This document shows positions 1,929 through 64,000 of a stretch of 64,000 nucleotides of DNA, one piece after another. The translations under genes and the position numbers were made by a program. How positions within the stretch are numbered: position 1 is the stretch's first letter; every line of letters starts with the position of its first letter. The stretch comes from Candidatus Saganbacteria bacterium (GTDB lineage Bacteria > Margulisbacteria > WOR-1 > O2-12-FULL-45-9). The DNA is taken from positions 479 to 64,478 of the forward strand of contig JACRKQ010000024.1 of the NCBI GenBank assembly GCA_016219705.1, read 5' to 3'. The notes beneath the pieces were generated by a model. The model was not told where the DNA came from. It ran no database searches and saw only the letters and a list, made by a program, of their open reading frames with translations.

Positions 1929-2762
1929 ATGGATTCCGCCTTAGATCTTAGGCAAGATTACAAAGAAAAATATCGTGAGGCATTGGATCAAAATCTTTCC
2001 ACAATAACCGCCGCTCCATTTTTCAGTTATAAAACACAGACGATCAGAGCCTTGGCTAAAACCGATCCCGACATCCAGATCATCGATTTTCGCAATAATT
2101 TTATAGTCGGTTCCGCCCGACATATCTTTCTTGAATCTATTGAAATTGCCACGGCAGAAAACAGACAGACCACCTTAGACCTCTTGCGTCACAAGAAAAA
2201 GACAATCCACCTGATTACACATTTGTATTATTTTGAAGATGCAGCCATTCTCTTGCCTAACGCTCAATTGCTTTTCCCACAATTGCTCAATCATGAGGAC
2301 ATTACTGTCATCAGAAGAGTTTTTGCTGATTTGCCAGCGACAGACAAACAAATCGCTGAAAATCTTATTGATTATTTCGATGGTTGGCCGGCAATTGCAC
2401 ATTTATGTTTTTTACCAGATAAAATAAATATTACAATGAAATTAATTTCTGCTTTAGCCGCCAATCCTAAAGTTAACCAGAAAGAGTACTTTGGCAAATT
2501 TTCTGCACCATTATTTAAACAACATTTTGATCTTTTATCGACAACTAAACCTTTTGATCCGCAACTTGCAGAAAAATCGATTCAAATACCAGCACAAATC
2601 TGGCAAGATTATCAATCCCGCAAGATCGACATAAAGCTACTCTGTGATTCAGTAGCAAATAATTTATGGTATTCTGTCAAATACGGCTATCTCTGGCTTG
2701 ATGAAGAGAAAGGCCAATTTAAAGTTCCTAAAATTATCGCCGACCTCATTAACAATGACTAG
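1929..2762 (+). CDS. Hypothetical protein (277 aa), AT-rich
   Basis: Long ORF starting 3 nt after the hisA stop. No recognisable motif, signal peptide or TM segment. Confidence 0.6.
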   Translation: MDSALDLRQDYKEKYREALDQNLSTITAAPFFSYKTQTIRALAKTDPDIQIIDFRNNFIVGSARHIFLESIEIATAENRQTTLDLLRHKKKTIHLITHLYYFEDAAILLPNAQLLFPQLLNHEDITVIRRVFADLPATDKQIAENLIDYFDGWPAIAHLCFLPDKINITMKLISALAANPKVNQKEYFGKFSAPLFKQHFDLLSTTKPFDPQLAEKSIQIPAQIWQDYQSRKIDIKLLCDSVANNLWYSVKYGYLWLDEEKGQFKVPKIIADLINND

Positions 2763-3735
2763 CCGAGATGTAAAATGTTTGGCTGCCACCCCAGATGAAA
2801 ACCCCGCTTGTTATGCCATCTGGGAAGCGCTCATTAAGAAATTAGCCGTCCAATTTCAGTTTTTTTATAAATCTCTTCGAGTTTATTTTGCTGATGGCAG
2901 CAAGCCAGCTCCCTATCTTTTTCCCGACGGCTGTATCGGAGATTTTCATTTTTCCGGGGTTGAGCTGGGTAATTTGTTTCGTTTTGTCCCGGCCGATGAA
3001 TTCGCCTCGCTGATTTTTCCCAAGCAAAATTTTTATGAGGAATCGGTAAGTCAAACATTCCTAACCAATGCGCTTTATGATCAATGCCCTGTTTTTCCTG
3101 TTTATCATCCAACACATCAGGAAGTTTTTACTCCTGGCTACTTTTATAAAATCCTTAAATTATCACCGGATCTTTTAAGCGTTAACTTTAAGGCTGATGA
3201 TGCCGCTTTTAAACCGGCGATCAGGATGCTCAATTTTTCTCTAGCTCTGCTTTACGCAGTTTGCCTTTTGGAGAGCGCCTATATTGATATTTTCGGCAAA
3301 CACCGCGAACCATTGGCCATGATTAGAAAAATTGAGCATAACTGGCGGCTGGGCAGCGGCCGGATTGCCAGGGGGCTGAATAGTTTTCACCTTTATATTT
3401 TGAGCTTTTTAACAAGAATCACCCATGTCAGCGGCTATGGTCTGGCGGCATCATTATTTAGACTAAAAAACGGCGCCCACTCTTATAATCCAGGACATGG
3501 CACTTGGCAGATAGGCAACGATATTGATCATTTACCATTTAAATTATTTTTGGAAAAACAAATAAGATTATTAGTTGAACATTGGTGCAAAAATATTTCT
3601 CCGGAAAATCGCCAGCAAATTAAGCTCGCTGTCTGTTTGGGTGAACTTTTTGGCTTGGGTTATGAAACAGCTCCCGAAATAAGTAAAGCTGCGTATAAAA
3701 ACGCCCCCGTTAATTTTCGGCCAGACTTTGCCTAA
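2755..3735 (+). CDS. Hypothetical protein (about 326 aa), AT-rich
   Basis: Long ORF. ATG at 2755 gives an 8-nt ATGACTAG overlap with the upstream stop (the ORF track offers 2698 as the earliest start). No recognisable motif. Confidence 0.6.
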   Translation: MTSRDVKCLAATPDENPACYAIWEALIKKLAVQFQFFYKSLRVYFADGSKPAPYLFPDGCIGDFHFSGVELGNLFRFVPADEFASLIFPKQNFYEESVSQTFLTNALYDQCPVFPVYHPTHQEVFTPGYFYKILKLSPDLLSVNFKADDAAFKPAIRMLNFSLALLYAVCLLESAYIDIFGKHREPLAMIRKIEHNWRLGSGRIARGLNSFHLYILSFLTRITHVSGYGLAASLFRLKNGAHSYNPGHGTWQIGNDIDHLPFKLFLEKQIRLLVEHWCKNISPENRQQIKLAVCLGELFGLGYETAPEISKAAYKNAPVNFRPDFA

Positions 3736-4069: not shown

Positions 4070-4192
4070 CCTTGCTAAAGCAACCGCTCCGAATACCCCC
4101 CCATCCTGACCCAAAGCCGAAGGGATAATTTTTATTCTCCCCGCCTGTTCCGCCGGCAAATTCCGCTTGACCAGATCGTTAAGCGATTTAAA
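4070..4192. repeat. 123-bp direct repeat, copy A (detached copy of the ROK gene 3' region)
   Basis: 121/123 identical to 4906-5028 (mismatches at 4080 and 4112). On the minus strand it reads FKSLNDLVKRNLPAEQAGRIKIIPSALGQDGGVFGAVALAR-stop. Confidence 0.95.
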
Positions 4193-4577
4193 ACAAGGTT
4201 TCGATTATTTTAGCTTTTATTATTTCATCATCTCTGGTAATGAGCTTGACTTTTTCTTTAAGGATGTCTCGATATACCATGGCAGTAGCGCAAATAATTG
4301 CATCATGTATTTCAAGATTCGGCGACATTTTTTCAACGACTGTCAGATCTAGAGGATAAATTCTGCAACGGGGATCGGATTCAATTGCCAAAATAACTGC
4401 TTGTAAATCCACATTTATTCGTTTTCTTGAAATAAGATGCTTTATTTCTGCCAGTGTAATGGAAGGGATAACCAGTAAATCTTGATTATTATTAAAAATC
4501 TCCTTACATTTTTTACCCAATTTTTCTCCGCCTTCAAAAAACCAGACTAGAATGTGAGTATCCAGGACATAATACAT
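4188..4577 (-). CDS. vapC: PIN-domain toxin (VapC-like)
   Basis: 129 aa with N-terminal YVLDTH, a conserved acidic residue pattern (D6, E in LAEIK, D in HDAI, TRDDE), and a small upstream partner gene. Confidence 0.85.
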   Translation of the reverse strand: MYYVLDTHILVWFFEGGEKLGKKCKEIFNNNQDLLVIPSITLAEIKHLISRKRINVDLQAVILAIESDPRCRIYPLDLTVVEKMSPNLEIHDAIICATAMVYRDILKEKVKLITRDDEIIKAKIIETLF

Positions 4578-4578
4578 G

Positions 4579-4773
4579 CTAAAATTCCTTGGATTTCATA
4601 TGGGAGAGTTGTATTTCTTCAAGTGAAAAATTTGTTTTACCTTTCCATATTCCATACAAAGTAGAAAAACCAGCTGGTTTCGTTTTTTCTATCGTATCTA
4701 GCTGAATCCTTAAAACTTTTACTTCCTCCTCTAACCCCTTCATTTTTGCCAGTACCGAAGAATAGGCACTCAT
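4579..4773 (-). CDS. Small antitoxin-like protein (64 aa) partnered with VapC
   Basis: 1-nt gap to vapC. Size and position are typical of type II antitoxins. Carries an LYGIWKG...FSLEEI motif. Confidence 0.65.
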   Translation of the reverse strand: MSAYSSVLAKMKGLEEEVKVLRIQLDTIEKTKPAGFSTLYGIWKGKTNFSLEEIQLSHMKSKEF

Positions 4774-4878: not shown

Positions 4879-5880
4879 TCAGAAAATAATCTTATTATAA
4901 TACAGCCTTGCTAAATCAACCGCTCCGAATACCCCCCCATCCTGACCTAAAGCCGAAGGGATAATTTTTATTCTCCCCGCCTGTTCCGCCGGCAAATTCC
5001 GCTTGACCAGATCGTTAAGCGATTTAAATAATAATTCACCGGCATCTGACATTCCCCCGCCAATAATAATTGTTTCCAATTTATGGAGTCGGATCAGTTT
5101 AACAATACCATGCGCTAAATAATTTAAACTTTCGGCCAGAACTTCCTGGGCGGTTCGGTCGCCTAAAGCCGCCGCCTCATAAATAATTTCCGCATTAATT
5201 TTAGCGGCCAAATCGTGACCATCTTTGAAAGGTCCGATTAATTTTAAGATTTGAGAATTAAGATCTTTTTTCTCCGCAATTTTTTGCAGAGCGTTTCTGG
5301 CAATCGCTTCACCAGATGAATAAAGATGCAGACAGCCTTTCTGCCCGCAGCCGCATTGAACACCATCTGGAACAACAACCATATGGCCGAATTCAGTTTC
5401 TCTGCCGCTCTTGCCGTGATAAACCTGACCGTCCGTAACAAGCGCTCCCCCCACCCCTGTCCCCAAAATTAAATAGAGGAAATTTTTGATCTCGCGGCCG
5501 GCGCCGGAATGCAGTTCGCCGAGAGCGGCGGCATTGGCATCATTATCTGCGAAAACCGGGAGGCGAAATTGCTTTTGCAGTCGCTGCTGGATTAAACAGG
5601 GTAAAATTATTTTTTGATTTTCAAGTTCGACTGTCAAACTCGGCGCGCCAACGCCAATGGCTTTAATATCTTTTTGGTCGGTGTCAGTAGTTTTAAGAAG
5701 TTCACTAATTCCATTATTAAGCATAGTATTCCAGGTGCCATCATAAACTCCGCTGGGCAGGATTATTTGTTTGAGGATCTTGCCGGAATCATCAGCCAGA
5801 GCGAACGCCGTTTTGGTGCCGCCAACATCTATGCCGATATACATTGGTTTTGAGTTTAGCGCAGATAAGATTTTTAACAA
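4879..5880 (-). CDS. ROK family sugar kinase (glucokinase-like)
   Basis: YIGIDVGGTK, ADNDANAAALGE and CGCGQKGCL motifs. The maximal ORF starts with TTG at 5880; ATG at 5844 (MYIGIDVGG) is the more likely start. Confidence 0.88.
   Translation of the reverse strand: MLKILSALNSKPMYIGIDVGGTKTAFALADDSGKILKQIILPSGVYDGTWNTMLNNGISELLKTTDTDQKDIKAIGVGAPSLTVELENQKIILPCLIQQRLQKQFRLPVFADNDANAAALGELHSGAGREIKNFLYLILGTGVGGALVTDGQVYHGKSGRETEFGHMVVVPDGVQCGCGQKGCLHLYSSGEAIARNALQKIAEKKDLNSQILKLIGPFKDGHDLAAKINAEIIYEAAALGDRTAQEVLAESLNYLAHGIVKLIRLHKLETIIIGGGMSDAGELLFKSLNDLVKRNLPAEQAGRIKIIPSALGQDGGVFGAVDLARLYYNKIIF
4906..5028. repeat. 123-bp direct repeat, copy B (inside the 3' end of the ROK kinase gene)
   Basis: Matches 4070-4192 with 2 mismatches. 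Confidence 0.95.
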
Positions 5881-7472
5881 GCCTCTTTGATTGATAATTC
5901 TAGTTCATGTCCCGGCGTCTGAAAGCCAGATTCAGCCGCCACCCGTTCCAGCATCCCGTTGATTAATTTTCGCTTATTAGTCAGAAAGGCCATCTCTCCC
6001 TGCGCCTCAATCGCCGTATTAAGCAGAGAAAATTCATGCTCCGCTTCACGGAACATCTTTTCGTTCGCCTTATCACGGATCTGGTCCAGTTCTATTTGAC
6101 TTAAACTGACTCCGATTTTATCCAGGTTGCGCAAGACGGTTTTAAGTTTTCTCTCCGTCATCTGCCAAGCTGCGCCTTCTAGTTTAGCATAAGTCGCCCG
6201 CTCTTCAAACCCTTCGCGCAGCATTTCAAAGAGTTTGATTTTAGCGCAAGCCGTCGCCTCTTTTTCAATCCGGTCAAAGTTACTGACTCCTAATTTAATT
6301 AAACCGTTCTTAGACCTGATCATCTTAAACTGGGTTTCGAGCAAGGTGCGGGCATCGCCATAGACCGCTCGGCGCATGTATAAAGCGCGCAACTTATCGG
6401 TCAGAATATCTTTTTCTTCCTGGACCGTATACTGATATTGGTGGCGCTGTTTTTGATCGCTACTCGTCCCTGTGCCGGTATCAATATATTCAGTATAAAT
6501 TAATAGATTGAGACCAAGATTATCTGTTAGCTTGGGTAATTTTTCCATAAATTGCTGAACATCATAACCAACTTTTGTCCCAAGCTTAAGTAATTCATCG
6601 ATGGCTTTTTCGGTCTTAGCTGGATCATCAGAAGTAACCTTCTTAATAACTTCACCAGTTAAGGCGTCGTCAACAAAGTCGCGCAATAAGCCATGGATAT
6701 CCTCTTTTGCCTCATTAACAACGCCCTGCAATCCCCCTTTATAATTACCGAACCTGTGGCCGCCTAAATTCATCTTCTTCTCTGCGAAGAATAATAAATC
6801 CTGGGTTTCCGATTTAGCGATTAACCACTCCATCGATTTTGATTTGGCTAAAATAAGATTTAAATAGGCGTCTTTAACCTGCAAAGCCACTTCGCCGCGG
6901 ATGGAATTAGCTGCCTGGAGCTTTAAGTTTTTGACATCTTTGTAATTCATCTCATGCTCGGCCAGTAGTTTTTTTTCTAACTGCTCCATTTTTCGTTTAG
7001 CTTCCTGGCCGCCGCACACCAGTGTTTGCGAATAAGCCGCGAGATATTCTTTAACATCAGATTGGGCCGAGTCATCATCTTGCCCTAAATCAGTTCCCGT
7101 TTGTCCGCTGAATTGTTTTTTCTGCTTGCTTGAGCTGACCGCAGTAATCGGGTTATTAACATCAACAATATCGTTGGTGTTTTCCTGCCTGCCATCAAGA
7201 GCAAAGCCGTAATCTTTCGCCAGATTATTCAGCAGTTTTGCCTGACCAATTTGTTGCGCCAACTTATTAGCTAAATTGGCCAATATTTGCACTCCGGCTT
7301 TATCGGCCTGGCCATTGAGCGCTTTTTTGAGGACACTCTCTGCGACTTTGGCATTATTATTAGTATCAAGCTTGCGCTCAAATTCCGACTTTAAAATCTG
7401 GTCGAGACTTTGGGCGGCTGAAAGGTTGCCCAAAACCGCGCCTTGTTGTTGATTAACTTGTTCCAATCCCAT
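5874..7472 (-). CDS. Hypothetical helical/coiled-coil protein (532 aa)
   Basis: Long ORF 4 nt downstream of the GT2-TPR gene. Q/N-rich N-terminus, no signal peptide or TM segment, no recognised motif. Confidence 0.75.
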   Translation of the reverse strand: MGLEQVNQQQGAVLGNLSAAQSLDQILKSEFERKLDTNNNAKVAESVLKKALNGQADKAGVQILANLANKLAQQIGQAKLLNNLAKDYGFALDGRQENTNDIVDVNNPITAVSSSKQKKQFSGQTGTDLGQDDDSAQSDVKEYLAAYSQTLVCGGQEAKRKMEQLEKKLLAEHEMNYKDVKNLKLQAANSIRGEVALQVKDAYLNLILAKSKSMEWLIAKSETQDLLFFAEKKMNLGGHRFGNYKGGLQGVVNEAKEDIHGLLRDFVDDALTGEVIKKVTSDDPAKTEKAIDELLKLGTKVGYDVQQFMEKLPKLTDNLGLNLLIYTEYIDTGTGTSSDQKQRHQYQYTVQEEKDILTDKLRALYMRRAVYGDARTLLETQFKMIRSKNGLIKLGVSNFDRIEKEATACAKIKLFEMLREGFEERATYAKLEGAAWQMTERKLKTVLRNLDKIGVSLSQIELDQIRDKANEKMFREAEHEFSLLNTAIEAQGEMAFLTNKRKLINGMLERVAAESGFQTPGHELELSIKEAC

Positions 7473-7476
7473 TTTT

Positions 7477-8496
7477 TTATCCTCTTAACCGGTTATATTC
7501 AGCCAGACAAGCTTGGGCCATAAATTTTTCACCTTTTTGCTCATAGGCCTTGCTTAAAAATAGGTTAGGCAGAGCGTAATTAATGCCTAATTGGCCGTCA
7601 ATTTTATTAGTTAATATCTCTTTTAATAATTCAATCGACTGATCAACTTCTCCGCTTAAAAGATATATGCCGGCAAAAGTTGTTTTGGCCGAAATATTGT
7701 CTGGTTCCATAACCAACAGCGCTTGCGCCGCCTGGGCCGCTTCATTAAAACGTTTTGAACAAAAAAGTAAATTGATTTTTTTCTCCAATGCTTCCCGGCC
7801 AATGGGCTCATCAGGAACCAAGCCGTAAGCTTGATCGTAATGTTCTAAAGCTTCCGGCAGTCGGTTCAAGGCTTCCAGGCTGGCCGCCAGGCGAAAATGA
7901 TAGTATGGGTCATCCGGGGATTGAATTAAGGCCTGCGTAAAAAGACGGATATAATTTTCCTGCTTGACCTTGAAGCGCTCCGCCGCAATATATTTTCCCC
8001 AATGGTAAATTGCTAATGGAGAAAGATCTCCCCGGGCAATCTCACCGCGCGCATCGACTAATTGTTCATTGATCGGCCGGATAAAAGTATAACCGGCTTT
8101 ACGATGAAAGAGTTTGACGCGCTGATAACTAAAGTTTTTATCGCAAGTCCCGTACTTGGACTCGTAGATCGTCACGTTATAAGCGTTCACTTTTGCTTTC
8201 GCTAAAAACGTTTTTAGATTTTTTAGGTCGGCAGTCTCGATCAATTCATCCGCGTCGACCCACAGGACCCAGTCACCAATCGCGTATTGAAGCGACTCAT
8301 TGCGCGCCGCGGCGTAATCATCGCGCCAGATAAAATGATAAACTTTAGCCCCGTATTTTTTCGCCAGTTCAACCGTCCCGTCGGTTGAGCCGGTATCGAC
8401 TAAAATAATTTCATCAACCCCCTGGCTTAAACTCGGCAAAGTTTTCGCCAGATTGGCCTCTTCATTTTTTACAATCATGCAAGCAGATATTTTCAT
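7477..8496 (-). CDS. Family 2 glycosyltransferase with C-terminal TPR repeats
   Basis: N-terminal SACMIVKNEE...LVDTGSTDGT...DADE (GT2 DxD) followed by TPR-like A/Y/L repeats (YYHFRLAASLEALNR, EALEHYDQAYGL). Confidence 0.85.
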   Translation of the reverse strand: MKISACMIVKNEEANLAKTLPSLSQGVDEIILVDTGSTDGTVELAKKYGAKVYHFIWRDDYAAARNESLQYAIGDWVLWVDADELIETADLKNLKTFLAKAKVNAYNVTIYESKYGTCDKNFSYQRVKLFHRKAGYTFIRPINEQLVDARGEIARGDLSPLAIYHWGKYIAAERFKVKQENYIRLFTQALIQSPDDPYYHFRLAASLEALNRLPEALEHYDQAYGLVPDEPIGREALEKKINLLFCSKRFNEAAQAAQALLVMEPDNISAKTTFAGIYLLSGEVDQSIELLKEILTNKIDGQLGINYALPNLFLSKAYEQKGEKFMAQACLAEYNRLRG

Positions 8497-8504
8497 AGAT
8501 TCCT

Positions 8505-8891
8505 TTAAGCCGCCGCCTGGACATGGGCCGGAGTGATCTGGCGTACGGCGCGTCGGGTTTTCACCTGGTCCCCCGTCGCCTTCTCTAAAATATTTTCATA
8601 CTCTTTAACGTGCCGCTGCCGCAGGCTAACCGCCTTGCGCACATAAGCGTTTAAGCGTTCCAGTTTGATCATGACCTCTCTTTTATTGGAATCGATGGTC
8701 TGCAATTCATATTCCAGATTGGCCCGCTCCATATAAAATTCGGATAAGATTTTACTAACGGAATCTAATTTTGTCTCTTCAAAGTAGAGCGGCGTGTATT
8801 GCTCTTTAATGCCCAGACGTTCCGCCTGAACCACTAATTGGTTTTTTAATTCGTTGATTAATTTCTTCTGGGCGCTTTTTTTCTTGCTCAT
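8505..8891 (-). CDS. Hypothetical coiled-coil protein (128 aa)
   Basis: ORF with a 4-nt overlap to the upstream gene. Charged heptad-like sequence, no known motif. Confidence 0.7.
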   Translation of the reverse strand: MSKKKSAQKKLINELKNQLVVQAERLGIKEQYTPLYFEETKLDSVSKILSEFYMERANLEYELQTIDSNKREVMIKLERLNAYVRKAVSLRQRHVKEYENILEKATGDQVKTRRAVRQITPAHVQAAA

Positions 8892-9406
8892 CCGATTATC
8901 TCCAGCATCGTCTCATCATAAATTACCTGTTCCATGGAAGAGCGATTTTGATCGATTAAATCAGCCCGGACCTGGGTTTTAAGTTCATTTAATTCCTCAA
9001 GCGACATCCCCATTAAAGCCAGCTGTTCCATGACGTTACCGACCATCCATTCCGCCACCTTGGCCAGCAAGCGGTTGTGAGAGAAGACATTGCCGTAAGA
9101 GGAGACAAACATTTTCTGGAAACGGCTTTTTAAGTCGACCAGCATCTCCTGGGAGAAGAGGCCGGAGCGGGAGACACGGGCGGAAGTATCGGTGGCGGTT
9201 GAAGTTAAGAGAGATTCAAAGTCAGAGATATTGGCTTTTAAGGTGTGGTCAGCGTTATCAGTCGTCTGCCATTCAAAACCGGACTCGCGCAAAGCTTGCG
9301 TTAAACGGAGAGCTTCCTGCTGCGGCGGCGGTGCAGTTTGCGCTTTACGCGCCGCGTACTCCTTGGGCGCATTGCTAATTCCAACATTTAAAGATAGGTT
9401 ACTCAT
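8888..9406 (-). CDS. Hypothetical protein (172 aa)
   Basis: ORF with a GAGGG SD 5 nt upstream of the ATG. No signal peptide. Confidence 0.7.
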   Translation of the reverse strand: MSNLSLNVGISNAPKEYAARKAQTAPPPQQEALRLTQALRESGFEWQTTDNADHTLKANISDFESLLTSTATDTSARVSRSGLFSQEMLVDLKSRFQKMFVSSYGNVFSHNRLLAKVAEWMVGNVMEQLALMGMSLEELNELKTQVRADLIDQNRSSMEQVIYDETMLEIIG

Positions 9407-9458
9407 AGTTGCCCTCTACATTATATATCGAGATAAAGAGGGAAAAACTTGCAGTAAT

Positions 9459-11597
9459 TTATGCGGTATCTTTTTTATTTTTGGCCAGCAGGGCTTTACT
9501 GTTTTTCGAAAAATTGAGTAGACGCTGACTGTATTTTTGCAAAGATTGTTTGTACTCGTTTGAACCCATTCTATAATCTCGTTGGCGACTGGCAGTCTGA
9601 CGCGCTGGATTTTGACGTTGAGCGCTTCGATTTTGATTATTCCCTCGGACAACAGCTCTTTCTTCTTGAGCTTTCTCCGCTTCGATTTCTTCTTTGCGCT
9701 GATTATGGTCTGCCATATCACTCTTATATTCCACGGAAGCAACTCGACGTGAAGACGATCTTTGCATTAACTGAACAAAATCCAGGTTCTGTCCCCACCT
9801 TAGGAGCATCCCTTGAGCATAAATCGCCCAATTTTGATTATACCTTTCTCCCGCAATCATATCATTGTAAGACAATTGGCTAAACTGGGCAGTAACATAG
9901 TTGGGATGCGGCACCCCTTCGATAGCAGAATTAATGTTTGAGGCAATGCTTCCCTGCCGCCAAAGTTGGTCCATAATATCGGCCCAACCCGCGTCTCGAG
10001 GTGAAACCCATCTAACATCATATACGCCGCTTCCAATTTTTGCCAAAATATCCGGCCCCCATTTTCTGTCCCAGCCATAACTTGGAAAATAGTTTGGATG
10101 ATTGGCTCGCTGTGGTAAAAAGACCGCTAAGGCTGTTTCTCGACTGCCATGAATATTTATAAAACTGATGCGGTTTTCTGGAGCGAAGTTCGCCCAATCA
10201 CTCTCACGAATACTAGAAAAATTATAGACTATGCGCGCTCCTTCCCGCTGCATCTCTTCATTACTGCTATAGCCCTCCCAGGTCGGACGATTGTTTCTCA
10301 ACTCCGTCGCGCCAAACCAACCCTCGATTAAGCGGGAAACAGCATTGTAAGCAGGAAGATTGCTGATCGATCCATCTCGAGTATATCTCTGTCGATAATC
10401 GTATAAGAAACCTCTTCTGGCCGGCCTTTCCACGCCGTTATAACTTTCACGTCCTGCCCATAGAGAAAATTCCCAAAAGCGCTCACGATCTAAAATTGAT
10501 AATTCCGACCCATCGCCTTTTTGTCTCTCATAAAAGGTAGTCATCCTGTTAATGGCAGAGTGTATTATAGGCAAAAACATGGTAAATAATGAAAGCGCGT
10601 GATGGTTAGCTGCCGGATTACTTGAATTAATAAAACGATCAATATTGGTCATCATAGACCTATCATCACGGGTTTGGTTGACCGCCCCAAAAATTTCCGT
10701 CATCATCGCCCAGGCGCGCTCCCGCGATTCATACATAGCCGCGACTAATAATGTCGCGTCGCGCGAGGATAAAGATTGATAACTGCGGTTAATGACAATC
10801 TGATAAAAACTTTTGCCTCTTAAATTAGGATTATTTTCTAAAAGATCTTTTACTTGCTGCCAATTACTTCCAATGGCACCCAGAAAATTACCAACTCGTC
10901 CCGAAGGATCGTTGATAAAATAAGCTTGTTCACCGACAAAGTTGGCTAAAGAATCCAGATTGGTACTATCTTTTTGCCTGATATGGTTCCATTCTGCAGC
11001 TTCCGTTTCAAAATCAAGGTTGCGAAAGGCAGTACCTTGTCCTTGTCCATCAATCATACCGGTTTCACCAGTGCGGTGATGCTGTCCCGCAATCCAGGTT
11101 GGTTGCCGACGGAACCTTGCAAACCCATCCGGATCACCACTACTCATAAGTTCTGGATGTCTTTCCGCCCAAATAATGGTGTCGGCATTAGTATATCGAG
11201 TATCGCCATTTTCATCATGGATATCTCTGATCACGTCTTCGCTCAAACCGATACCACTGGTACGAAAAGCTGTCCGCGCTTCTTCTGCAGAAGAGAAACC
11301 TTCCTCATTAAAAGCCTCCCACCATTGACTGGAAACAGTTGAGGATGTGCGGCCGTGAGCAAAGGTTACCCCGGAATCACCAGCAGGAAGAGCAGCGACA
11401 TTAGTGCTATACATTTTTTGCTCAAACCGGGGTAGAAATTTCATCATTTCCAAACCAAAATTAGCAAGACGCTTAAGATTTGGATCGTACGTTTGAAAAT
11501 TAGTAAAATCAGGACTTTGAGGAAGCAGGCGTTTTCTGGGACGACTGCCCTTTAATTGTTCAAGAGTTGAAGCGCTCGCGTATTTATTACCGAACAT
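9459..11597 (-). CDS. Large hypothetical protein (712 aa), Trp/Arg-rich with a charged C-terminal tail
   Basis: Uninterrupted 2.1-kb ORF, 19 Trp by my count, no signal peptide or TM segment, last ~90 aa Q/R/K/E-rich. Confidence 0.8.
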   Translation of the reverse strand: MFGNKYASASTLEQLKGSRPRKRLLPQSPDFTNFQTYDPNLKRLANFGLEMMKFLPRFEQKMYSTNVAALPAGDSGVTFAHGRTSSTVSSQWWEAFNEEGFSSAEEARTAFRTSGIGLSEDVIRDIHDENGDTRYTNADTIIWAERHPELMSSGDPDGFARFRRQPTWIAGQHHRTGETGMIDGQGQGTAFRNLDFETEAAEWNHIRQKDSTNLDSLANFVGEQAYFINDPSGRVGNFLGAIGSNWQQVKDLLENNPNLRGKSFYQIVINRSYQSLSSRDATLLVAAMYESRERAWAMMTEIFGAVNQTRDDRSMMTNIDRFINSSNPAANHHALSLFTMFLPIIHSAINRMTTFYERQKGDGSELSILDRERFWEFSLWAGRESYNGVERPARRGFLYDYRQRYTRDGSISNLPAYNAVSRLIEGWFGATELRNNRPTWEGYSSNEEMQREGARIVYNFSSIRESDWANFAPENRISFINIHGSRETALAVFLPQRANHPNYFPSYGWDRKWGPDILAKIGSGVYDVRWVSPRDAGWADIMDQLWRQGSIASNINSAIEGVPHPNYVTAQFSQLSYNDMIAGERYNQNWAIYAQGMLLRWGQNLDFVQLMQRSSSRRVASVEYKSDMADHNQRKEEIEAEKAQEERAVVRGNNQNRSAQRQNPARQTASRQRDYRMGSNEYKQSLQKYSQRLLNFSKNSKALLAKNKKDTA

Positions 11598-11626
11598 AAA
11601 GGCTAATTCCCTTCATTATAAATAAG

Positions 11627-11947
11627 CTACCCGCTATTAACAACGTTATTAAGTTTGTTAGGTAGAGTGAGTAAGTCAAATTTGAAATTTTCCAATAACA
11701 AATTATATGCGGTTTCTTGTTCGTTTCGCCAAAGTTCCTGCCACATAGTCGCCGCAACGCCAAATTTTTCTTCTTTCGAGAAAGTTTTTCCGCCTAATTC
11801 TAAAGGCGAAGAAGTATCTGTCAACGATAGTAATAATTTGCCCAATTCAGCTTGAAAATTTCCATAAAATCTTTGTAATTGATTCCGCTGGCCAAAATTA
11901 CGTTCAATCCCAAAATCAGCGACCTGCTCAAATCCTATTGTTGCCAT
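11627..11947 (-). CDS. Hypothetical protein (106 aa)
   Basis: ORF with an AAGGAG SD 9 nt upstream of the ATG. Sits directly downstream of the terminator of the 110-aa gene. Confidence 0.65.
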   Translation of the reverse strand: MATIGFEQVADFGIERNFGQRNQLQRFYGNFQAELGKLLLSLTDTSSPLELGGKTFSKEEKFGVAATMWQELWRNEQETAYNLLLENFKFDLLTLPNKLNNVVNSG

Positions 11948-11988
11948 AATTAATTTCTCCTTTTTCCCATCTTTTCATCTTATTAGTT

Positions 11989-12021
11989 AAAATAAAAAGA
12001 TGGTCCGCCTAACGGCGGACC
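11989..12021 (-). terminator. Intrinsic terminator after the 110-aa gene
   Basis: Perfect 8-bp stem GGTCCGCC/GGCGGACC (12002-12021) with a 4-nt loop, followed on the minus strand by AUCUUUUUAUUUU. Confidence 0.75.
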
Positions 12022-12026
12022 ATTTA

Positions 12027-12359
12027 TTATGATTGTTGGAGCTTAGCTTGCGTACTTTTTCTCGCGTTAATCCAACCCGTTATAACACCAGTTGCGTTGG
12101 CAAGAATATTTTGAATCTTGTCTTTCACTGCTTCAATCAAGGTAACACCACTGGTTCCCCCGATATTGGCTACTTTTCCATCAAGGGTAAAATCGCCCAG
12201 TTGATACCTCGTACCGTCAGGATTCAAAGAAGTATCAGTGGCTGTTGTATTGCTTGAGATTGCACGTGATGCGTTGATAATGGTTGTCAACATATTAAGC
12301 TGTTCATTATCCATCATTCTGGCATTATTTACCGCGTCTCCTATAATTTGTGATACCAT
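12027..12359 (-). CDS. Small hypothetical protein (110 aa), S/T/N-rich centre, helical ends
   Basis: Very strong SD GAGGAGGTGA 7 nt upstream of the ATG, plus its own terminator. Confidence 0.75.
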   Translation of the reverse strand: MVSQIIGDAVNNARMMDNEQLNMLTTIINASRAISSNTTATDTSLNPDGTRYQLGDFTLDGKVANIGGTSGVTLIEAVKDKIQNILANATGVITGWINARKSTQAKLQQS

Positions 12360-12450
12360 ATTGTTTCACCTCCTCTTTTTCTAAATTTTCTTTCCATCTT
12401 CTTCCCCATCCACTTCTACTATCGCATCAACCAACCAGAAACTTGCATGC

Positions 12451-12705
12451 TTAAACGAGGGAATTAAAATTTACTCCCGGTAGCTGCTGGCCGGAAATGT
12501 TAGACATGTAGTTCGTGACATCCTGCGGATTTATTTTTTGCGCCGCAGCCATCTGTCCGCCATCGCCTAAGGGATTATTTTTTTGGCCTAACGTTTGGTC
12601 AACACGGTTGGCTAGTTGCTCGAGTAAATTATTAGCGCCGGAGGCTTCATCTGAACCGCGGCCGATTTGATTCGTGTTGTTGTTATAAGAGGTATTGATG
12701 TTCAT
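12451..12705 (-). CDS. Small hypothetical protein (84 aa), N/Q/G-rich
   Basis: ATG at 12705 is preceded by an AGGTGA SD at 8 nt. The GTG start at 12717 in the ORF track lies inside that SD. Confidence 0.65.
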   Translation of the reverse strand: MNINTSYNNNTNQIGRGSDEASGANNLLEQLANRVDQTLGQKNNPLGDGGQMAAAQKINPQDVTNYMSNISGQQLPGVNFNSLV

Positions 12706-12811
12706 AATGTTCTTCACCTATATTATCGTAGTGAGAAAAAAAAAACTTGCGCCGACTTAACTCAAAATGCCAAACAGCCTAATTTTGTGTTAGAATATCA
12801 GCAAGTAAGAT

Positions 12812-25480: not shown

Positions 25481-28122
25481 TGACAAATAATAAAATCCAA
25501 TGCGTTTTGTCACTTATTATTTATTGTTCGATGGTTTCTACTTGTTTTGCCTCTCCCATTATTTCCAATGAAGAATTAGTCTCCGTCGCCGACAATCACA
25601 TCGTCATTACCTGGCAGACAACCAATGAAGCGGCTAACTCCGGCGTCAAATGGGGTTATAGCTCTACGCCTGATAATATTTATGTAACAGATGAAGCCAG
25701 GACCATGGATCATTATCTGGTTTTAACCAACCTCTACCCAAACACTATTTACTATTACAAAGTTTTCAGCTATTCGGCGGCCGGGACGACCGAAAGTGTG
25801 CTGCATTCCGTGACCACGCTAGCGCGACCCAGCGGCAATTATCTTTTCAGTTTCGCCACCCTGACAGATCTTCATTATGCGCCCAATCGCGCCAGTACGA
25901 CGAATGTCCGCGGCCGCCCCTATGCTTCCAGCGAAGCGCTTATCGACGCTCTGGTCAGCAACATTAATCAGCACTCTCCCGCCTTCACTATAATTAAAGG
26001 CGATATGATGGACGTCGGGGTTGACACTCCACTCATCCGGATTGCCCAATTGAAAAGCCGTCTTGATAATTTAACCGGCAGCGGCAGTACAAAATATTAT
26101 CCTATCCCCGGCAATCATGATAAGGGGATAACTTATGATTCTGGCAATAATTGGGTAACCGGCAATCTGGGAGTGCTCTATCCCGCAAAGGCAGGACTAC
26201 CGGCCGGCAATTCTACTTTCAATTATGGTTTTAATTATAGCGGTTATCGCTTCATTCTTCTTGATTCTTCCGTCAGCAACGGGACAACAGCTGAAGTTAA
26301 TATTACTTCGTTGGAAGCGGAATTAACGATCGCCAGGACAGCGGGCCAAAAAGCTTTTATCTTTATGCACCATGAAACGAGTGAGGAATCGGATATCCCT
26401 ATTGATTTTTTTCGTACGGTTTTAGACGAATCAAGCTGGGAAGAGAGTGACTGGAATAAAATTAGATTAATCAACAAAACCGCTTTCATGAGTTCGCTTG
26501 AGGCTTATAAATTAGCTAATGGCGAACCAGTTGCGGCGGGAGTATTTTCGGGACATATCCATGACAACCGCAAACGTGTTTTCAATAATATTCCCTATGT
26601 ACGCACGGCTTCCGGCCTGCAATTTCCCACTGGTTTTAATATTTATAAAGTCTACAGCAACGGTTATATTCAGACTTTCTATAAGCTGCCTGGTTTTTCC
26701 GAAGAAATTGCCCGCGACCTTGTAACCGGCACCGCTGAAATTACCGCCGCCCGCGCCCAGCAATTTTATCTCGGCGGCGCTTCTAGCCGTAATTTCACTT
26801 TCACTTATACCACCAGCACCACCATCGCACCAACAATCGAATCACTTCAACCAGCCAGCGAGAGCAGCAGCGTTGCCTTAAACCAACCTATCATCATTAC
26901 TTTTACTAAAACCATGAGTCGAGAAACAGCTGTCCAGAGCTGGTTAAATATTACAGCCAACAGCACGCCCCTAACTCTAACAAGTTCCGATTGGAGCTGG
27001 AATGCCGCCAGGACAATTTTAACGATCAATAAAACGTTGTCCGCCTCTACAAATTATATCGTCACGATCAGCGGCGGGGCCAGCGGCGCCGTTGCCGCTG
27101 ACAACACCTATTTTAGTTCCGATTACAGTTTTAGTTTTGCCAGCGGCGCTGCACCATCGACAACAGCGCCATTGGCTGTTTTCCACAACATCAAAAATGA
27201 GCAGGGCTCCGTAACCGACGTTACCACTAACTCCAAACCAACATTAACCGGTGTAGCGACCGATGCCAGCGGCTCAACAATCACCGATGTTGAATGCCGC
27301 TATGCCAGCGGTAGTTTCAGCGCCTGGCTCCCGGCCACGCCTCTTGATGGCGCTTTTAATTCATCCCAGGAAGCTTTCTCCTTTACTGTAACCAGTGAAA
27401 TTGTCCGAGGACAGCATGAAATCCAGGTCCGCTCAACTAACGCGGCCGGTCTTACCTCAACCGGATCTTCAACCGCTTATTCTTTTTGGGTCATCAGCAA
27501 TAAACCAGAGCTCACATTGAAAGCTAATGGCACCAGCCTAATTAACGGCGACCCGCTTGATACCTCCCCTTCGCTGGAAATCTCTGTCATTACAGATGTC
27601 ACTCTTGATCAACTTTGGCTAACCATTGATACCGATCGAATTAATCTCAAACCCGCCAGCCCCAGTTTTGTGAATACAATCTTTTATCGCCCCACTCTGG
27701 CCGCGGGGACGCATAACTTGAAAGTCGAGACTGTTGACATAACTGCCAGCGGTGTCAGCCGCGCTAGCACAAAGGAAGCTGTTAATTTATTGGTGCAGAC
27801 TGCCGGCGATCCCAATCTTTTTGGCCCGCCCCTTAATTATCCCAATCCCTTTGATCCCTCATCTCAAAGCACAATCATCAGTTACACGTTATCGAAAGAT
27901 TCTGATATTAACTTAAAAATTTTTGATTTAGGCGGAAATCTTTTGGTTAATCAAAGTTTCACATCAGGCCAGAGCGGCAGCAAAGCCGGTTACAACGAAA
28001 TCACGTGGGATGGCAAGAGCAATGGGAACTTAGTCGGCAACGGTCTTTACCTCTATCTGCTCATTAGCGACGGCAAAGTCCTGCAGAACGGGACCGGGAA
28101 GATTACGGTGTTCAAACTATGA
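25480..28122 (+). CDS. Secreted metallophosphoesterase with FN3/PAP-N-like, Ig-like and T9SS-type (FlgD-Ig/Por_Secre_tail-like) C-terminal domains
   Basis: Signal peptide. Calcineurin-like motifs TDLH, GDMMD, GNHD, MHHE and GHIHDN. The C-terminus LNYPNPFDP...ISYTL...INLKIFDLGGNLL...ITWDGKSNGNLVGNGLYLYLL matches the CTD pattern. 1-nt TAATG overlap with the upstream gene. Confidence 0.8.
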   Translation: MTNNKIQCVLSLIIYCSMVSTCFASPIISNEELVSVADNHIVITWQTTNEAANSGVKWGYSSTPDNIYVTDEARTMDHYLVLTNLYPNTIYYYKVFSYSAAGTTESVLHSVTTLARPSGNYLFSFATLTDLHYAPNRASTTNVRGRPYASSEALIDALVSNINQHSPAFTIIKGDMMDVGVDTPLIRIAQLKSRLDNLTGSGSTKYYPIPGNHDKGITYDSGNNWVTGNLGVLYPAKAGLPAGNSTFNYGFNYSGYRFILLDSSVSNGTTAEVNITSLEAELTIARTAGQKAFIFMHHETSEESDIPIDFFRTVLDESSWEESDWNKIRLINKTAFMSSLEAYKLANGEPVAAGVFSGHIHDNRKRVFNNIPYVRTASGLQFPTGFNIYKVYSNGYIQTFYKLPGFSEEIARDLVTGTAEITAARAQQFYLGGASSRNFTFTYTTSTTIAPTIESLQPASESSSVALNQPIIITFTKTMSRETAVQSWLNITANSTPLTLTSSDWSWNAARTILTINKTLSASTNYIVTISGGASGAVAADNTYFSSDYSFSFASGAAPSTTAPLAVFHNIKNEQGSVTDVTTNSKPTLTGVATDASGSTITDVECRYASGSFSAWLPATPLDGAFNSSQEAFSFTVTSEIVRGQHEIQVRSTNAAGLTSTGSSTAYSFWVISNKPELTLKANGTSLINGDPLDTSPSLEISVITDVTLDQLWLTIDTDRINLKPASPSFVNTIFYRPTLAAGTHNLKVETVDITASGVSRASTKEAVNLLVQTAGDPNLFGPPLNYPNPFDPSSQSTIISYTLSKDSDINLKIFDLGGNLLVNQSFTSGQSGSKAGYNEITWDGKSNGNLVGNGLYLYLLISDGKVLQNGTGKITVFKL

Positions 28123-54480: not shown

Positions 54481-54879
54481 TTATTTACTCCCTACTAAAT
54501 TACGAATTAATTGACATATTTTTTCTGCGATTATTAAGCTCTTGTGAGCCTCTTCTGATGTTACTTTTTCTCCGGTTGGATATATCAATTGTGGCAATAG
54601 ATCGTCAAGAAAATAAATATCCTCAAAAATATCTTTTGTGCCCTTAATGGAAACAACTTCGCAGGCCAGACGGAAAAGCTCCTTTAAGTCGTGGATAAAA
54701 GGGAATCTTCTGTCGTTTTTCAGTAAAACCCATTTGAATATTTTTTCAACCGCCTGGTGAGAATGGTAAACAGAGATATGATAGTTATCGCTTTTTTCTA
54801 ATATCAGCTTGGCCGATTCCAGATCATCAATCGCATATTGCAACCATTCATCAATAACCAGAGACTTTTCATCTTCCAT
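54481..54879 (-). CDS. HEPN domain protein (toxin of a HEPN-MNT pair)
   Basis: 132 aa with an R-x4-H motif (RRFPFIHDL). Overlaps the upstream MNT gene by 11 nt. Confidence 0.8.
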
Positions 54880-62768: not shown

Positions 62769-63278
62769 TCACAAACCCAGTTCGGACAACCCTTGTGGTT
62801 GTCCTTCAATAAGCGCCCTTCCCGAATATGGCCATTTATCCCAGCTTTTTACCAATCCTTTTTTCACAGGATTATTAAATATATATTTAGCAATCCTGCT
62901 AAATGACTGACTTGCCCCTTGAGGCCACAGAATGCGATCATGAAAGCACCCCTGCCATAATTTGCCATTAATCCCGAAGCTCCAAGCAACTTTCGTGCTT
63001 TTACTTTTAAAACCGCCAACAAAATCAGAGACGCTGATTTCATTGCCTGGCGCAGAAAGAAGCAGATGCATATGGTCCGGCATCAGACAGTAGGCATAAA
63101 CCCTAAAGCCTGTCCGTTTTTGCTCTTCGATTAAGCAGTCGATTACCTGTTTATTAAACGCATCATTGGTGAAACGAGGAATTCTATGTTTTGTATTTGT
63201 GGTGATGAAGTAGTAGCCATGGGTTGTGTAGTCATAACCCTTTAGGCGCGGATTTTTTCGCTTTGGGAGCTTTTTCAT
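62769..63278 (-). mobile_element. IS200/IS605 Y1-transposase-like protein, RAYT-like (169 aa)
   Basis: YHITTNT-like YFITTNTKHR and YAYCLMPDHMHLLL (HUH-type motif). Single gene flanked by hairpins at 62784-62804 and 63346-63366. Confidence 0.8.
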
Positions 63279-63378: not shown

Positions 63379-64000
63379 TCATTGTAGTTTAGATGCCATA
63401 TTCACCAGCGGGAGAAAGACCGTCATCACTATCAGGCCAACGATCAGGCCAACTACTAAGGTTAGTATTGGTTCAAGGAGCGAGGTAAACTTTTTCAAAC
63501 TATATTCACGTTCCTTTTCATATATATCAGCTGCCGCCAAAAGCATTTGCGCTAAATGTCCGCAATTTTCGCCAACCTTGATCATCTGTATCGTTTCGTC
63601 TGATAAAAGCCACTGAGCGCTTAATACATCACTTAACCGTTTTCCATTACTAATTTCTTGTTTAATTTTATTTATTTTTTCTCGCAAGATCTGATTTGGT
63701 GTTGTAGCCGCAATCGTGCTCAAAGCGCTAATTATTGGCACCCCGCCTTGTAATAGAATTCCCAAATTTCGCAACACTTCCGCCATTAAACTCCGTTTAA
63801 TAAAATCGATTTTTAATAACGCGTTATCAATAACCAGAGAACCCTTAACCGAACGTCGATAATAAAACAGCCCTACCCCCGCGGCTATCAGCAAAATCGA
63901 CGCGTATGGAAAAATCACCACAGATCGATCTGCATTCAAAATGACGAATTGGGTCAGCCAAGGTAAATCAGCGCCCAGATCCGCAAACAGATCCTTAAAA
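63379..64000 (-). CDS. Type IV pilus/T2SS platform protein (PilC/GspF family), 5' end beyond window
   Basis: GspF-domain motifs (LLQGGVPI, GENCGHL...). The frame stays open to nt 64000 (…FKDLFADLGADLPWLTQFVILNADR…). Confidence 0.88.
   Translation of the reverse strand, partial: FKDLFADLGADLPWLTQFVILNADRSVVIFPYASILLIAAGVGLFYYRRSVKGSLVIDNALLKIDFIKRSLMAEVLRNLGILLQGGVPIISALSTIAATTPNQILREKINKIKQEISNGKRLSDVLSAQWLLSDETIQMIKVGENCGHLAQMLLAAADIYEKEREYSLKKFTSLLEPILTLVVGLIVGLIVMTVFLPLVNMASKLQ

Follow-up and report, generated by a model that had tools for sequence, protein, structure and literature searches.

Orphan genes of the Margulisbacteria that probably belong to the flagellar regulon

Introduction

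Which cellular system is served by eight adjacent genes when seven of them encode proteins without a match in Pfam, NCBIfam, or the PDB? The question is raised by a stretch of 64,000 nucleotides (nt) from a Candidatus Saganbacteria bacterium (assembly GCA_016219705.1, contig JACRKQ010000024.1, positions 479 to 64,478), the whole of which is referred to here as the window. Positions 5874-12705 of the window carry eight minus-strand genes, named A to H in the order of transcription, that a first-pass annotation of the sequence had described as a seven-kb operon for a candidate undescribed filament, appendage, or secreted-substrate system. The comparison with relatives reported here suggests that A to H are members of the flagellar regulon of the Margulisbacteria, a reading to which a probability of roughly 85% is assigned. 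The evidence consists of three sigma-28-like promoters in the window, a flagellar operon headed by the same promoter type in related genomes, and a glycosyltransferase that resembles the flagellin-modifying enzyme GmaR.

Eight Genes and Their Products

All eight open reading frames (ORFs) of the first-pass annotation are present with the lengths it gave and are confirmed by the public gene calls, which contain the identical eight proteins; every one of these is a singleton at 90% identity. The genes are A (12451-12705; 84 amino acids (aa), acidic and N/Q/S/T-rich), B (12027-12359; 110 aa, acidic, with a Shine-Dalgarno (SD) sequence), C (11627-11947; 106 aa, acidic and helical), D (9459-11597; 712 aa), E (8888-9406; 172 aa), F (8505-8891; 128 aa, a basic coiled coil), G (7477-8496; 339 aa, a family 2 glycosyltransferase (GT2) domain plus tetratricopeptide repeats (TPR)), and H (5874-7472; 532 aa, all-alpha), each an ORF on the minus strand. 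The junctions from 9406 down to 5874 are as tight as had been described (a 4-nt overlap between E and F, and gaps of 8 nt between F and G and of 4 nt between G and H), and the G+C content of the genes (0.42-0.46) matches the rest of the window, in agreement with the native composition that had been proposed for them. This composition, together with the fixed hisHF-ROK-mreBCD location in most relatives examined, rules out an origin from a mobile element or island. Collinear orthologs of all eight genes are found in dozens of genomes, which places them far beyond chance ORFs. Mean pairwise identity is 0.42-0.52 for the faster-evolving A, B, and C compared with 0.61-0.66 for F, G, and H.

G is the sole protein of the set with a family match (Pfam GT2, 6.9e-24, and several TPR families). 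For the window proteins A-F and H no Pfam or NCBIfam match was found even at E<=1, and the earlier description of the set as unplaceable therefore holds for seven of the eight. A Pfam scan of 88 orthologs at E<=0.1 returned generic coiled-coil families only and nothing flagellar. Profile searches of PDB sequences with A, B, C, D, E, F, H, and g4 (a large protein of the wider cluster described below) gave nothing meaningful, the matches of E and B being de-novo designed helical proteins only and those of g4 coiled coils only. A, B, and C are mutually unrelated, and H is unrelated to the repeat modules of g4 (paralogy comparison). As had been stated for the window, a Sec signal is lacking throughout: no ortholog of A-H has an N-terminal hydrophobic or signal-peptide-like segment or a transmembrane (TM) segment. 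The genes are real, and most of their products are unlike any known protein.

Injectisome needle and translocator proteins, class II chaperones, and WXG100 proteins were considered as candidates and rejected, as A-F and H have no Pfam or NCBIfam match to any of them; matches to type III secretion chaperones were confined to the generic TPR of G and lay below the cutoffs, and the cluster encodes no secretion ATPase.

Three Promoters of One Type

A comparison of the intergenic gaps of relatives revealed a conserved element, TGCAAGTTTT-N13-CGATA(A/T)AT. The motif has three matches in the 64-kb window against 0.09 expected, all on the minus (coding) strand and located before A, B, and E, and the same three sites are the only ones in the 64 kb that score >12 with a position weight matrix (PWM) built from relatives. 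P1 (12716-12752, minus strand, GCGCAAGTTTTTTTTTTCTCACTACGATAATATAGGT) lies upstream of A and is an exact match to the motif (PWM 35.5), P2 (12412-12448, minus strand, ATGCAAGTTTCTGGTTGGTTGATGCGATAGTAGAAGT) lies upstream of B (PWM 29.4), and P3 (9418-9454, minus strand, CTGCAAGTTTTTCCCTCTTTATCTCGATATATAATGT) lies upstream of E-F-G-H with a score (PWM 38.6) that equals the median of the training sites. All three have counterparts in relatives, where a P1-type motif is found upstream of A orthologs, P2 is kept upstream of B together with a near-identical AAGGAGGTGAAA leader, and P3 is kept upstream of E (12 relatives). In 663 kb of related loci the motif has 85 matches, all of them on the coding strand of the cluster, and its spacing is invariant (80/80 sites). 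The matches precede g0, g1, and g4 of the wider cluster as well as A, B, and E, and in deep branches they also precede H.

The published sigma-28 consensus is TAAAGTTT-n11-GCCGATAA (PMC2859248). The motif shares AAGTTT and CGATA(A/T) with it, begins with GC instead of TA, and has a spacer that is 1 nt longer. Judged by sequence, P1, P2, and P3 thus resemble sigma-28 (FliA/WhiG) promoters.

An intrinsic terminator follows B on the minus strand (12000-12023, ATGGTCCGCC-GTTA-GGCGGACCAT then CTTTTTATTT), consisting of a 10-bp hairpin with seven G-C pairs and a T-run (12023-12000), and every relative examined has strong hairpins (one or two; -29 to -49 kcal/mol) in the gap between B and C. The SD sequence of B (AGGAGGTGA) is perfect and lies within the leader that is conserved across relatives. 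No promoter motif was found in the B-C gap, either in the window or in relatives, leaving C without a motif of its own. On this layout the window genes fall into three predicted transcription units, in which P1 serves A, P2 serves B and, beyond the terminator, C and D, and P3 serves E-F-G-H; C and D are probably expressed by read-through past the terminator of B. Two claims of the first-pass annotation have to be revised at this point. The genes do not make up one seven-kb operon but form several units in the downstream part of a larger cluster, and a flagellar signature, which had been missed, is present in the regulatory DNA (the sigma-28-like promoters) and in the GmaR-like protein G. Its suggestion that the two small genes are separately and strongly expressed is supported by the sequence, given the own promoters of A and B and the SD sequence and terminator of B.

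A conserved leader of ~70 nt separates gene A from its promoter in relatives and contains a terminator-like hairpin (CACCAGAGCCTGACTGG...AGTCAGGCTTTTTTT) just before the SD sequence of A (related loci are denoted by L numbers: L001 2100-2212, L008 8789-8899, L010 8787-8894, L011 4592-4713, and L016 4649-4752). The leader looks like an attenuator or regulatory RNA element, and no RNA family in Rfam matches it. It is absent from the window (12706-12752), where A begins 7 nt after the motif.

A Flagellar Operon behind the Same Promoter

A metagenome scan with the motif itself identified at least 120 loci. Cluster genes are present in at least 27 of them, and the other promoter-proximal genes include recurrent orphan families and a FliK-like family (~410 aa) that follows the motif in at least six loci. 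A representative of the latter matches Pfam Flg_hook above the cutoff (8.2e-13) and, more weakly, HpaP. When 80 promoter-proximal proteins were scanned, Flg_hook (4/80) was also the only family with multiple matches.

Flagellar genes were sought in the related loci with the E. coli flagellar proteins as queries. The motif heads a flagellar operon in three loci (L082, L086, and L144). In L082 this operon encodes FliK-like, FlhB-like, FlgF, FlgG, FlgA, FlgH, and FlgI proteins, followed by a FliA/WhiG sigma factor, FlgB, FlgC, FliE, FliF, and FliG. NCBIfam models confirm FlgG (above the equivalog cutoff), FlgA, and the FlhB-like protein. The sigma factor gene (L082 3133-3894) has FliA_WhiG as its best NCBIfam match (1.2e-40, below the subfamily trusted cutoff and ahead of other sigma families), and its product matches E. 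coli FliA in a phmmer comparison (1.5e-21). The presence of a FliA/WhiG gene within a motif-headed operon implies positive autoregulation, and it points to a flagellar hierarchy with a single promoter type for the orphan cluster and the early basal-body genes alike.

The link to the cluster itself is made by gene order. L086 is arranged as SPOR-MreBCD-PBP2-L25, the motif, and then the FliK-like and FlhB-like genes, and L011 has the same order ~9 kb downstream of the cluster, with a partial FliK-like gene that is 71.5% identical to that of L086 and 41% identical to that of L082. The synteny of L011 and L086, taken with the operon of L082, implies that cluster-bearing genomes encode a canonical basal body that is expressed from the same promoter type as the cluster.

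Further orphan families behind the motif comprise proteins of ~257 aa (at least nine loci), ~850 aa, and ~90 aa and giants of >2,600-3,000 aa (L067 36-809, L085 3302-4111, L096, L115, L070, L084, L151, L075 1434-4040, L100 1099-1368, L081 2-7864, and L125 1-9003). Those scanned have no Pfam or NCBIfam match, and one of the families has a LysM-domain gene as its neighbor in L085. Judged by these sequences, the flagellar regulon of the phylum appears to consist largely of unknown proteins.

The Glycosyltransferase G

G is composed of a GT2 (GT-A) domain (residues 1-175) and TPR repeats (180-335), the latter matched by several families within residues 184-297 (e.g., TPR_19, 3.1e-10), and the W-x-D-A-D-E (DxD) motif is invariant among eight G orthologs. 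The closest solved structure is the GT domain of GmaR (22ao_A, E 2.3e-32, residues 3-174, phmmer against the PDB), followed far behind by SunS (5.5e-16) and, in third place, a ThuS-like enzyme. On this evidence G is predicted to be a GmaR-type cytoplasmic protein glycosyltransferase.

GmaR of Listeria monocytogenes is both a flagellin O-GlcNAc (N-acetylglucosamine) transferase and an anti-repressor of MogR; it transfers GlcNAc to flagellin, has the order GT then TPR, and its TPR region was proposed to recognize flagellin (PMC9638930). G shares with it a homologous GT-A domain with the DxD motif, TPR repeats directly after this domain, and the flagellar-regulon context. It differs in being shorter (339 vs 637 aa) and in lacking the C-terminal linker and anti-repressor (MogR-binding) domains, so that no regulatory moonlighting is expected; as G ends after the TPR region, it is best regarded as a GmaR-like transferase and not as a GmaR ortholog. 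The likeness to FlmG of Caulobacter, whose TPR domain was shown to bind flagellins (PMC7591256), is functional and concerns the TPR-bound flagellin substrate, whereas FlmG has the reversed domain order and a GT-B catalytic domain. No canonical flagellin is encoded near G.

The arrangement of a GT2 domain followed by a helical, TPR-like substrate-binding region is also found in SunS and ThuS. SunS is the best NCBIfam match of G (4e-17), but with 62 bits against a cutoff of 350 G was rejected as a member of this S-glycosyltransferase family, and a glycocin-type precursor, protease, and exporter are missing from its flagellar context.

A Collinear Cluster across the Phylum

Homologs of D (n=16) are 31-43% identical to the window protein. 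Those of H (n=56) reach down to 29% identity, and every named one belongs to the Margulisbacteria (metagenome-assembled genomes (MAGs) of Candidatus Margulisiibacteriota or Saganbacteria). In a scan of one genome per GTDB species, H was found in 29 species, all of them Margulisiibacteriota, Saganbacteria, WOR-1, or unnamed MAGs with the exception of one that is labeled Omnitrophota.

When every family was placed on the contigs of relatives by hidden Markov models, a rigidly collinear cluster of 14-15 genes emerged in the order g1, g2, g3, g4, g5, A, B, C, D, E, F, G, H, and I, of which A-H make up the downstream two-thirds. The products outside A-H are g1 (~120 aa), g2 (75 aa, one TM segment), g3 (~380 aa), g4 (~1,850 aa, with several TM segments, four repeat modules, and a coiled-coil tail), g5 (97 aa), and I (~100 aa), and a signal-bearing protein, g0, often precedes the cluster. 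The deepest branches retain g4, D, E, F, and H, and on its distribution H is the anchor gene of the cluster across the phylum. The first-pass annotation had made its case depend on the co-occurrence of the genes outside this genome; they do so as a rigid set (H in 29 GTDB species), and this part of the proposal is not refuted.

The 64 kb of the window contain neither g1-g5 nor I, and the other families of the regulon are absent as well. Gene A is abutted by pyrK/pyrD on the opposite strand (12706-12811), and the window is the only locus with enough flanking sequence in which g4 and g5 do not precede A (compare L003 8644-8937 and others). From this arrangement the cluster appears to be split or truncated in this genome exactly at the promoter of A, with the trailing gene I also gone.

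Genes for four-helix-bundle proteins of the 23S_rRNA_IVP/bAvd-like type lie in or beside the cluster in two relatives (L007 8152-8583; L012 4240-4740 and 13385-13801), in L007 between g5 and A. Proteins of the bAvd-like kind can be accessory proteins of diversity-generating retroelements.

The Small Proteins A, B, and C

Protein A is made up of a helix, a Gly-rich loop, and a second helix, has an isoelectric point (pI) of 4.5, a conserved C-terminal PGM-x-N-x-VV motif, and no TM segment, and has no family or PDB match. Its orthologs (76-93 aa) occupy the same position in relatives. By eye their N-termini (MNINTS..., MQVINSSNS..., MKTGLNINSQL...) recall the M-x-x-INTN of flagellins and axial proteins, a likeness that we presume may be due to chance in N/S-rich sequence.

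The B family has 50 members of 102-187 aa in a profile search. The C-terminal ~40 aa are extremely conserved and the N-terminal helix moderately so, and between them lies a hypervariable center that is rich in Ser, Thr, Asn, and Asp (Ser/Thr fraction 0.20 vs 0.17 in the termini) and that has insertions of 0 to ~80 aa. No family or PDB match was found for B, and E. coli FliC gave no match to the B-family profile; likewise, Pfam Flagellin_N and Flagellin_C gave no match to A, to B, or to 9-11 orthologs of each at E<=0.1. The tail of B (QVAAQLLSTANNIAKTASRVLS) was considered as a flagellin C-terminus on account of a likeness seen by eye, and this was rejected by hhalign and HMMER. By analogy, B is nevertheless a candidate polymerizing subunit with an exposed middle part, as its conserved terminal helices around a variable, insertion-tolerant center reproduce the architecture of flagellin; it differs in having no sequence similarity and in being 2-4 times smaller. 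Canonical flagellins are much longer than ~110 aa.

Protein C is acidic, helical, and of the size of a chaperone. Across all orthologs of C, E, F, g5, and I that were scanned, no Pfam or NCBIfam match to FliS, FlgN, FliT, or FlgM was obtained, and the likeness of these five to export chaperones or FlgM is limited to size, charge, and helicity.

Proteins D, E, F, and H

The first-pass annotation had read helical or coiled-coil stretches from the sequences, and these reappear as the tail helices of D and the all-helical H in AlphaFold2 models and as the coiled coil of F. The model of D, built from a 16-sequence alignment, is confident (predicted local distance difference test (pLDDT) 78.7, predicted template modeling score (pTM) 0.80) and displays a mixed alpha/beta globular body with helices at 590-661 and 680-709, including a long (~70-residue) C-terminal helix with a basic tail. 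The alignment contains many invariant His, Trp, Asp, Glu, and Arg residues and an EF-hand/dockerin-like loop (D128-W143, consensus DxNGDGRITNADTIxW). Such Ca-binding-type loops are more typical of extracytoplasmic proteins. Foldseek returned no match to the D model in the PDB (best E 0.49) or in BFVD, D has no sequence relative in the PDB, and the lack of a viral structural match in BFVD is a further argument against an origin from a mobile element or island. An exhaustive HMMER search with the D profile collected 114 representatives and no link to a known domain, and the eight distant representatives that were scanned have no Pfam domain.

In E, the N-terminal half is variable and the C-terminal half is helical and conserved (HNRLLAKVAEW...YDETMLEI). 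No other member of the set is as conserved as F (pI 9.7; mean pairwise identity 0.66), whose length is constant at 128 aa and whose C-terminal AAA is near-invariant; F can be recognized even in the deepest branches and has no PDB or Pfam match. A C-terminal Ala-Ala-Ala recalls ssrA-like degradation tags. H is highly conserved with an invariant C-terminal E-A-C and has no PDB match. Its AlphaFold2 model is entirely alpha-helical and of low confidence (pLDDT 62, pTM 0.35), which makes the Foldseek matches of this poor model meaningless. The Foldseek comparison that had been proposed as a check thus revealed no remote homology of D or H to a described system, the model of H being poor.

Neighboring Genes

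A gene for a ROK-family sugar kinase (4879-5880, minus strand; Pfam ROK 2.1e-60) lies directly 3' of H and overlaps it by 7 nt, given a TTG start for the kinase. A ROK gene is also found directly 3' of the cluster in L010. The kinase may be a member of the module that feeds a sugar donor pathway, or it may be a mere neighbor. A second ROK block, ROK-HisH-HisF (93-1926), is located further on, and this block flanks the cluster in most relatives examined. Between hisF and the cluster the window contains two overlapping plus-strand ORFs (1929-3735; 277 and 345 aa) without a Pfam match, and the same slot is occupied in relatives by variable methyltransferase, APH-kinase, radical-SAM, or GT1 genes. 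By analogy with flagellin glycosylation islands, the genes of this slot are possibly glycan-tailoring. An ORF of 129 aa with an ORF of 64 aa upstream of it (4188-4773, between the ROK kinase and the hisF side) may be a candidate pair of PIN-like toxin and antitoxin, as judged by size and arrangement only.

Elsewhere in the window, a 705-aa protein (28119-30236) carries C-terminal SLH domains (8e-27), and its N-terminal part is weakly related to g0 (~25% identity, E 1e-14 to 1e-17); on the plus strand, the gene forms a run of three together with the genes for an orphan 643-aa protein and for a metallophosphatase/Big_5 protein. A HEPN-domain protein is encoded at 54481-54879, and at the edge of the window an IS200/IS605-type Y1 transposase gene (62769-63278) lies beside a T2SSF/PilC-type gene (63379-63939).

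Discussion

The cluster has much in common with the late flagellar loci that are controlled by sigma-28 (FliA/SigD). It shares the promoter type of the FliA operon, has several promoters within one cluster, includes a small gene (B) that is probably highly expressed and is followed by a terminator, encodes small acidic helical proteins beside large ones, lacks Sec signals, and contains a cytoplasmic protein glycosyltransferase. It differs from these loci in that the orphans match none of Flagellin_N/C, Flg_bb_rod, FliD, FliS, FlgN, FliT, and FlgM, in that the candidate subunit has only ~110 aa, in the ~1,850-aa multi-TM protein g4, which has no flagellar counterpart, and in the additional nucleotide of the promoter spacer. 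The resemblance to flagellin, chaperone, and glycosylation loci that the first-pass annotation had noticed is real, but the independent new appendage or secretion system that it had envisaged is unlikely, because the sigma-28-like promoters shared with the basal-body/FliA operon and the GmaR-like G point to a lineage-specific flagellar module instead.

Several observations weigh against membership in the flagellar regulon or against a role in the flagellum outside the cell. The window contains no flagellar gene, and the link is made by the identity of the promoters and by relatives; g1-g5, the upstream part of the cluster, are missing from it too. Recognition of the promoters by FliA is deduced from a motif with a spacer 1 nt longer than that of the E. 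coli sigma-28 consensus, and this motif drives early basal-body genes too and is no specific mark of late or distal genes. Neither the seven orphans nor their orthologs resemble families of flagellin, hook, junction, cap, or chaperone proteins; hhalign comparisons of all families with the E. coli flagellar proteins gave probabilities <3%, which is weak evidence as the positive control (FliK-like vs FliK) failed. The model of D is unlike any solved axial protein, and G was not detected in several deep-branching clusters. Finally, canonical flagellins could be the substrate of G rather than B. Some Margulisbacteria were reported to have canonical flagellins (PMC7018530), and FlgV was reported in some of them (PMC7018530, PMC11607428); no genome of the Margulisbacteria is listed by name in the supplementary data of the study on flagellin diversity.

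The full model, for which the chances are about even, extends the regulon assignment to a lineage-specific flagellar module in which B is a glycosylated structural subunit and the other proteins are exported components or chaperones. We infer the roles of the individual proteins as follows. For the signal-less products, the route out of the cytoplasm would be the flagellar type III export gate, unless they act as escorts of other exported proteins. B would be the abundant polymerizing subunit of an extracellular structure associated with the flagellum, either a filament or a coat of the filament, a role proposed because of its own promoter, perfect SD sequence, terminator, and conserved terminal helices around a hypervariable center, and A would be a second, separately expressed small component. 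G might O-glycosylate the exposed Ser/Thr-rich center of B (or A) in the cytoplasm before export, with the TPR repeats holding the substrate. C, E, and F may act as export chaperones or adaptors, and D and H may be large exported or assembly components, D being enzyme-like with a Ca-binding-type loop.

A more radical version, which is doubtful, holds that the distal flagellum is built from the orphan set instead of the canonical flagellin, hook-associated, and cap proteins. B would then be a helical-hairpin mini-flagellin of ~110 aa, O-glycosylated by a GmaR-like enzyme, with D, H, and g4 as novel components of the assembly or the junction and C, E, and F as novel export chaperones. Among the matches listed, no canonical flagellin, hook, junction, cap, or FliS protein was found in ~1.4 Mb of related loci, and none of these distal families lies behind the 80 promoter sites scanned. 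If this version is true, cluster-bearing Margulisbacteria would have the first bacterial flagellum in which the distal structure was replaced while the basal body stayed conserved.

Alternatively, the products may be governed by the flagellar regulon and yet remain inside the cell, as a cytoplasmic or inner-membrane scaffold for the placement of the flagellum, the function of its motor or export gate, or regulation, comparable to the lineage-specific polar landmark and scaffold proteins. In such a scaffold g4 and g2 would serve as anchor, F, H, and the tail of D as scaffold, and A, B, or g5 as small anti-sigma-like regulators. The lack of secretion signals in A-H, the dominance of coiled coils and helical bundles, the membrane proteins g2 and g4 in the clusters of relatives, the conservation of F and H at the level of core machinery, and a regulon that includes early basal-body genes and is not limited to exported late proteins all fit this explanation. 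It is unlikely all the same, as the variable center, terminator, and strong SD sequence of B speak for an abundant exposed subunit rather than a regulator, and as a GmaR-type glycosyltransferase in the operon and the Ca-binding-type loop of D argue in the same direction.

The cluster might also encode non-flagellar cargo that is co-regulated with motility, such as adhesins, effectors, or wall-modifying enzymes that use the flagellar gate or another route. Sigma-D/sigma-28 regulons elsewhere include autolysins and secreted non-flagellar proteins, and it agrees with such a content that D is enzyme-like with many invariant residues and a novel fold, that no orphan resembles a flagellar family, and that other orphan families stand behind the same promoter, one of them beside a LysM-domain gene in L085. 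A phylum-wide collinear cluster with fixed small partners, however, suggests a structural assembly, whereas effectors usually vary, and the glycosyltransferase is of the flagellin-modifying kind; cargo of this sort is therefore considered quite unlikely.

Improbable, too, is an independent and undescribed filament, appendage, or secretion system in which g4 and g2 form a membrane machine and the promoter merely belongs to a common alternative sigma factor. At least 13 orphan families, including a ~1,850-aa multi-TM protein with four repeated modules, could make up such a system, which would also account for the lack of similarity to flagellar components and for the fold of D without detectable match. 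Yet no secretion ATPase or other energy-coupling protein was found in any version of the cluster examined, the promoter is common to the basal-body/FliA operon, G is GmaR-like, and a flagellar operon adjoins the cluster in cluster-bearing relatives. Hardly credible, finally, is a glycocin- or RiPP-like (ribosomally synthesized and post-translationally modified peptide) locus with A and/or B as precursor peptides of a SunS-type G, for although the SunS family is the best NCBIfam match of G, SunS and a ThuS-like enzyme are its next PDB matches, and two small genes lie upstream, GmaR is a far better match, SunS stays at 62 bits against its cutoff of 350, A and B have no conserved Cys, no leader peptidase, other protease, or ABC exporter occurs in any cluster version examined, and the locus is phylum-wide, core-chromosomal, and in the flagellar regulon.

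The placement of A-H in the flagellar regulon concerns one of the best-studied bacterial machines, and universal conservation is generally assumed for its distal parts (hook, junction, filament, cap, and chaperones). With this placement, at least 13 protein families without detectable relatives, among them D with a confidently predicted fold that has no PDB match, would enter the flagellar regulon of an entire phylum, the sister group of the Cyanobacteria. A structural role of the products would point to a filament, coat, or accessory structure of the flagellum of an unknown kind and would give flagellin-type glycosyltransferases a new class of substrates; a cytoplasmic location would make the products a new flagellar scaffold. 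In either case, the sharply defined motif TGCAAGTTTT-N13-CGATAWAT offers a practical means of reading the whole motility regulon of uncultured Margulisbacteria straight from metagenomes.

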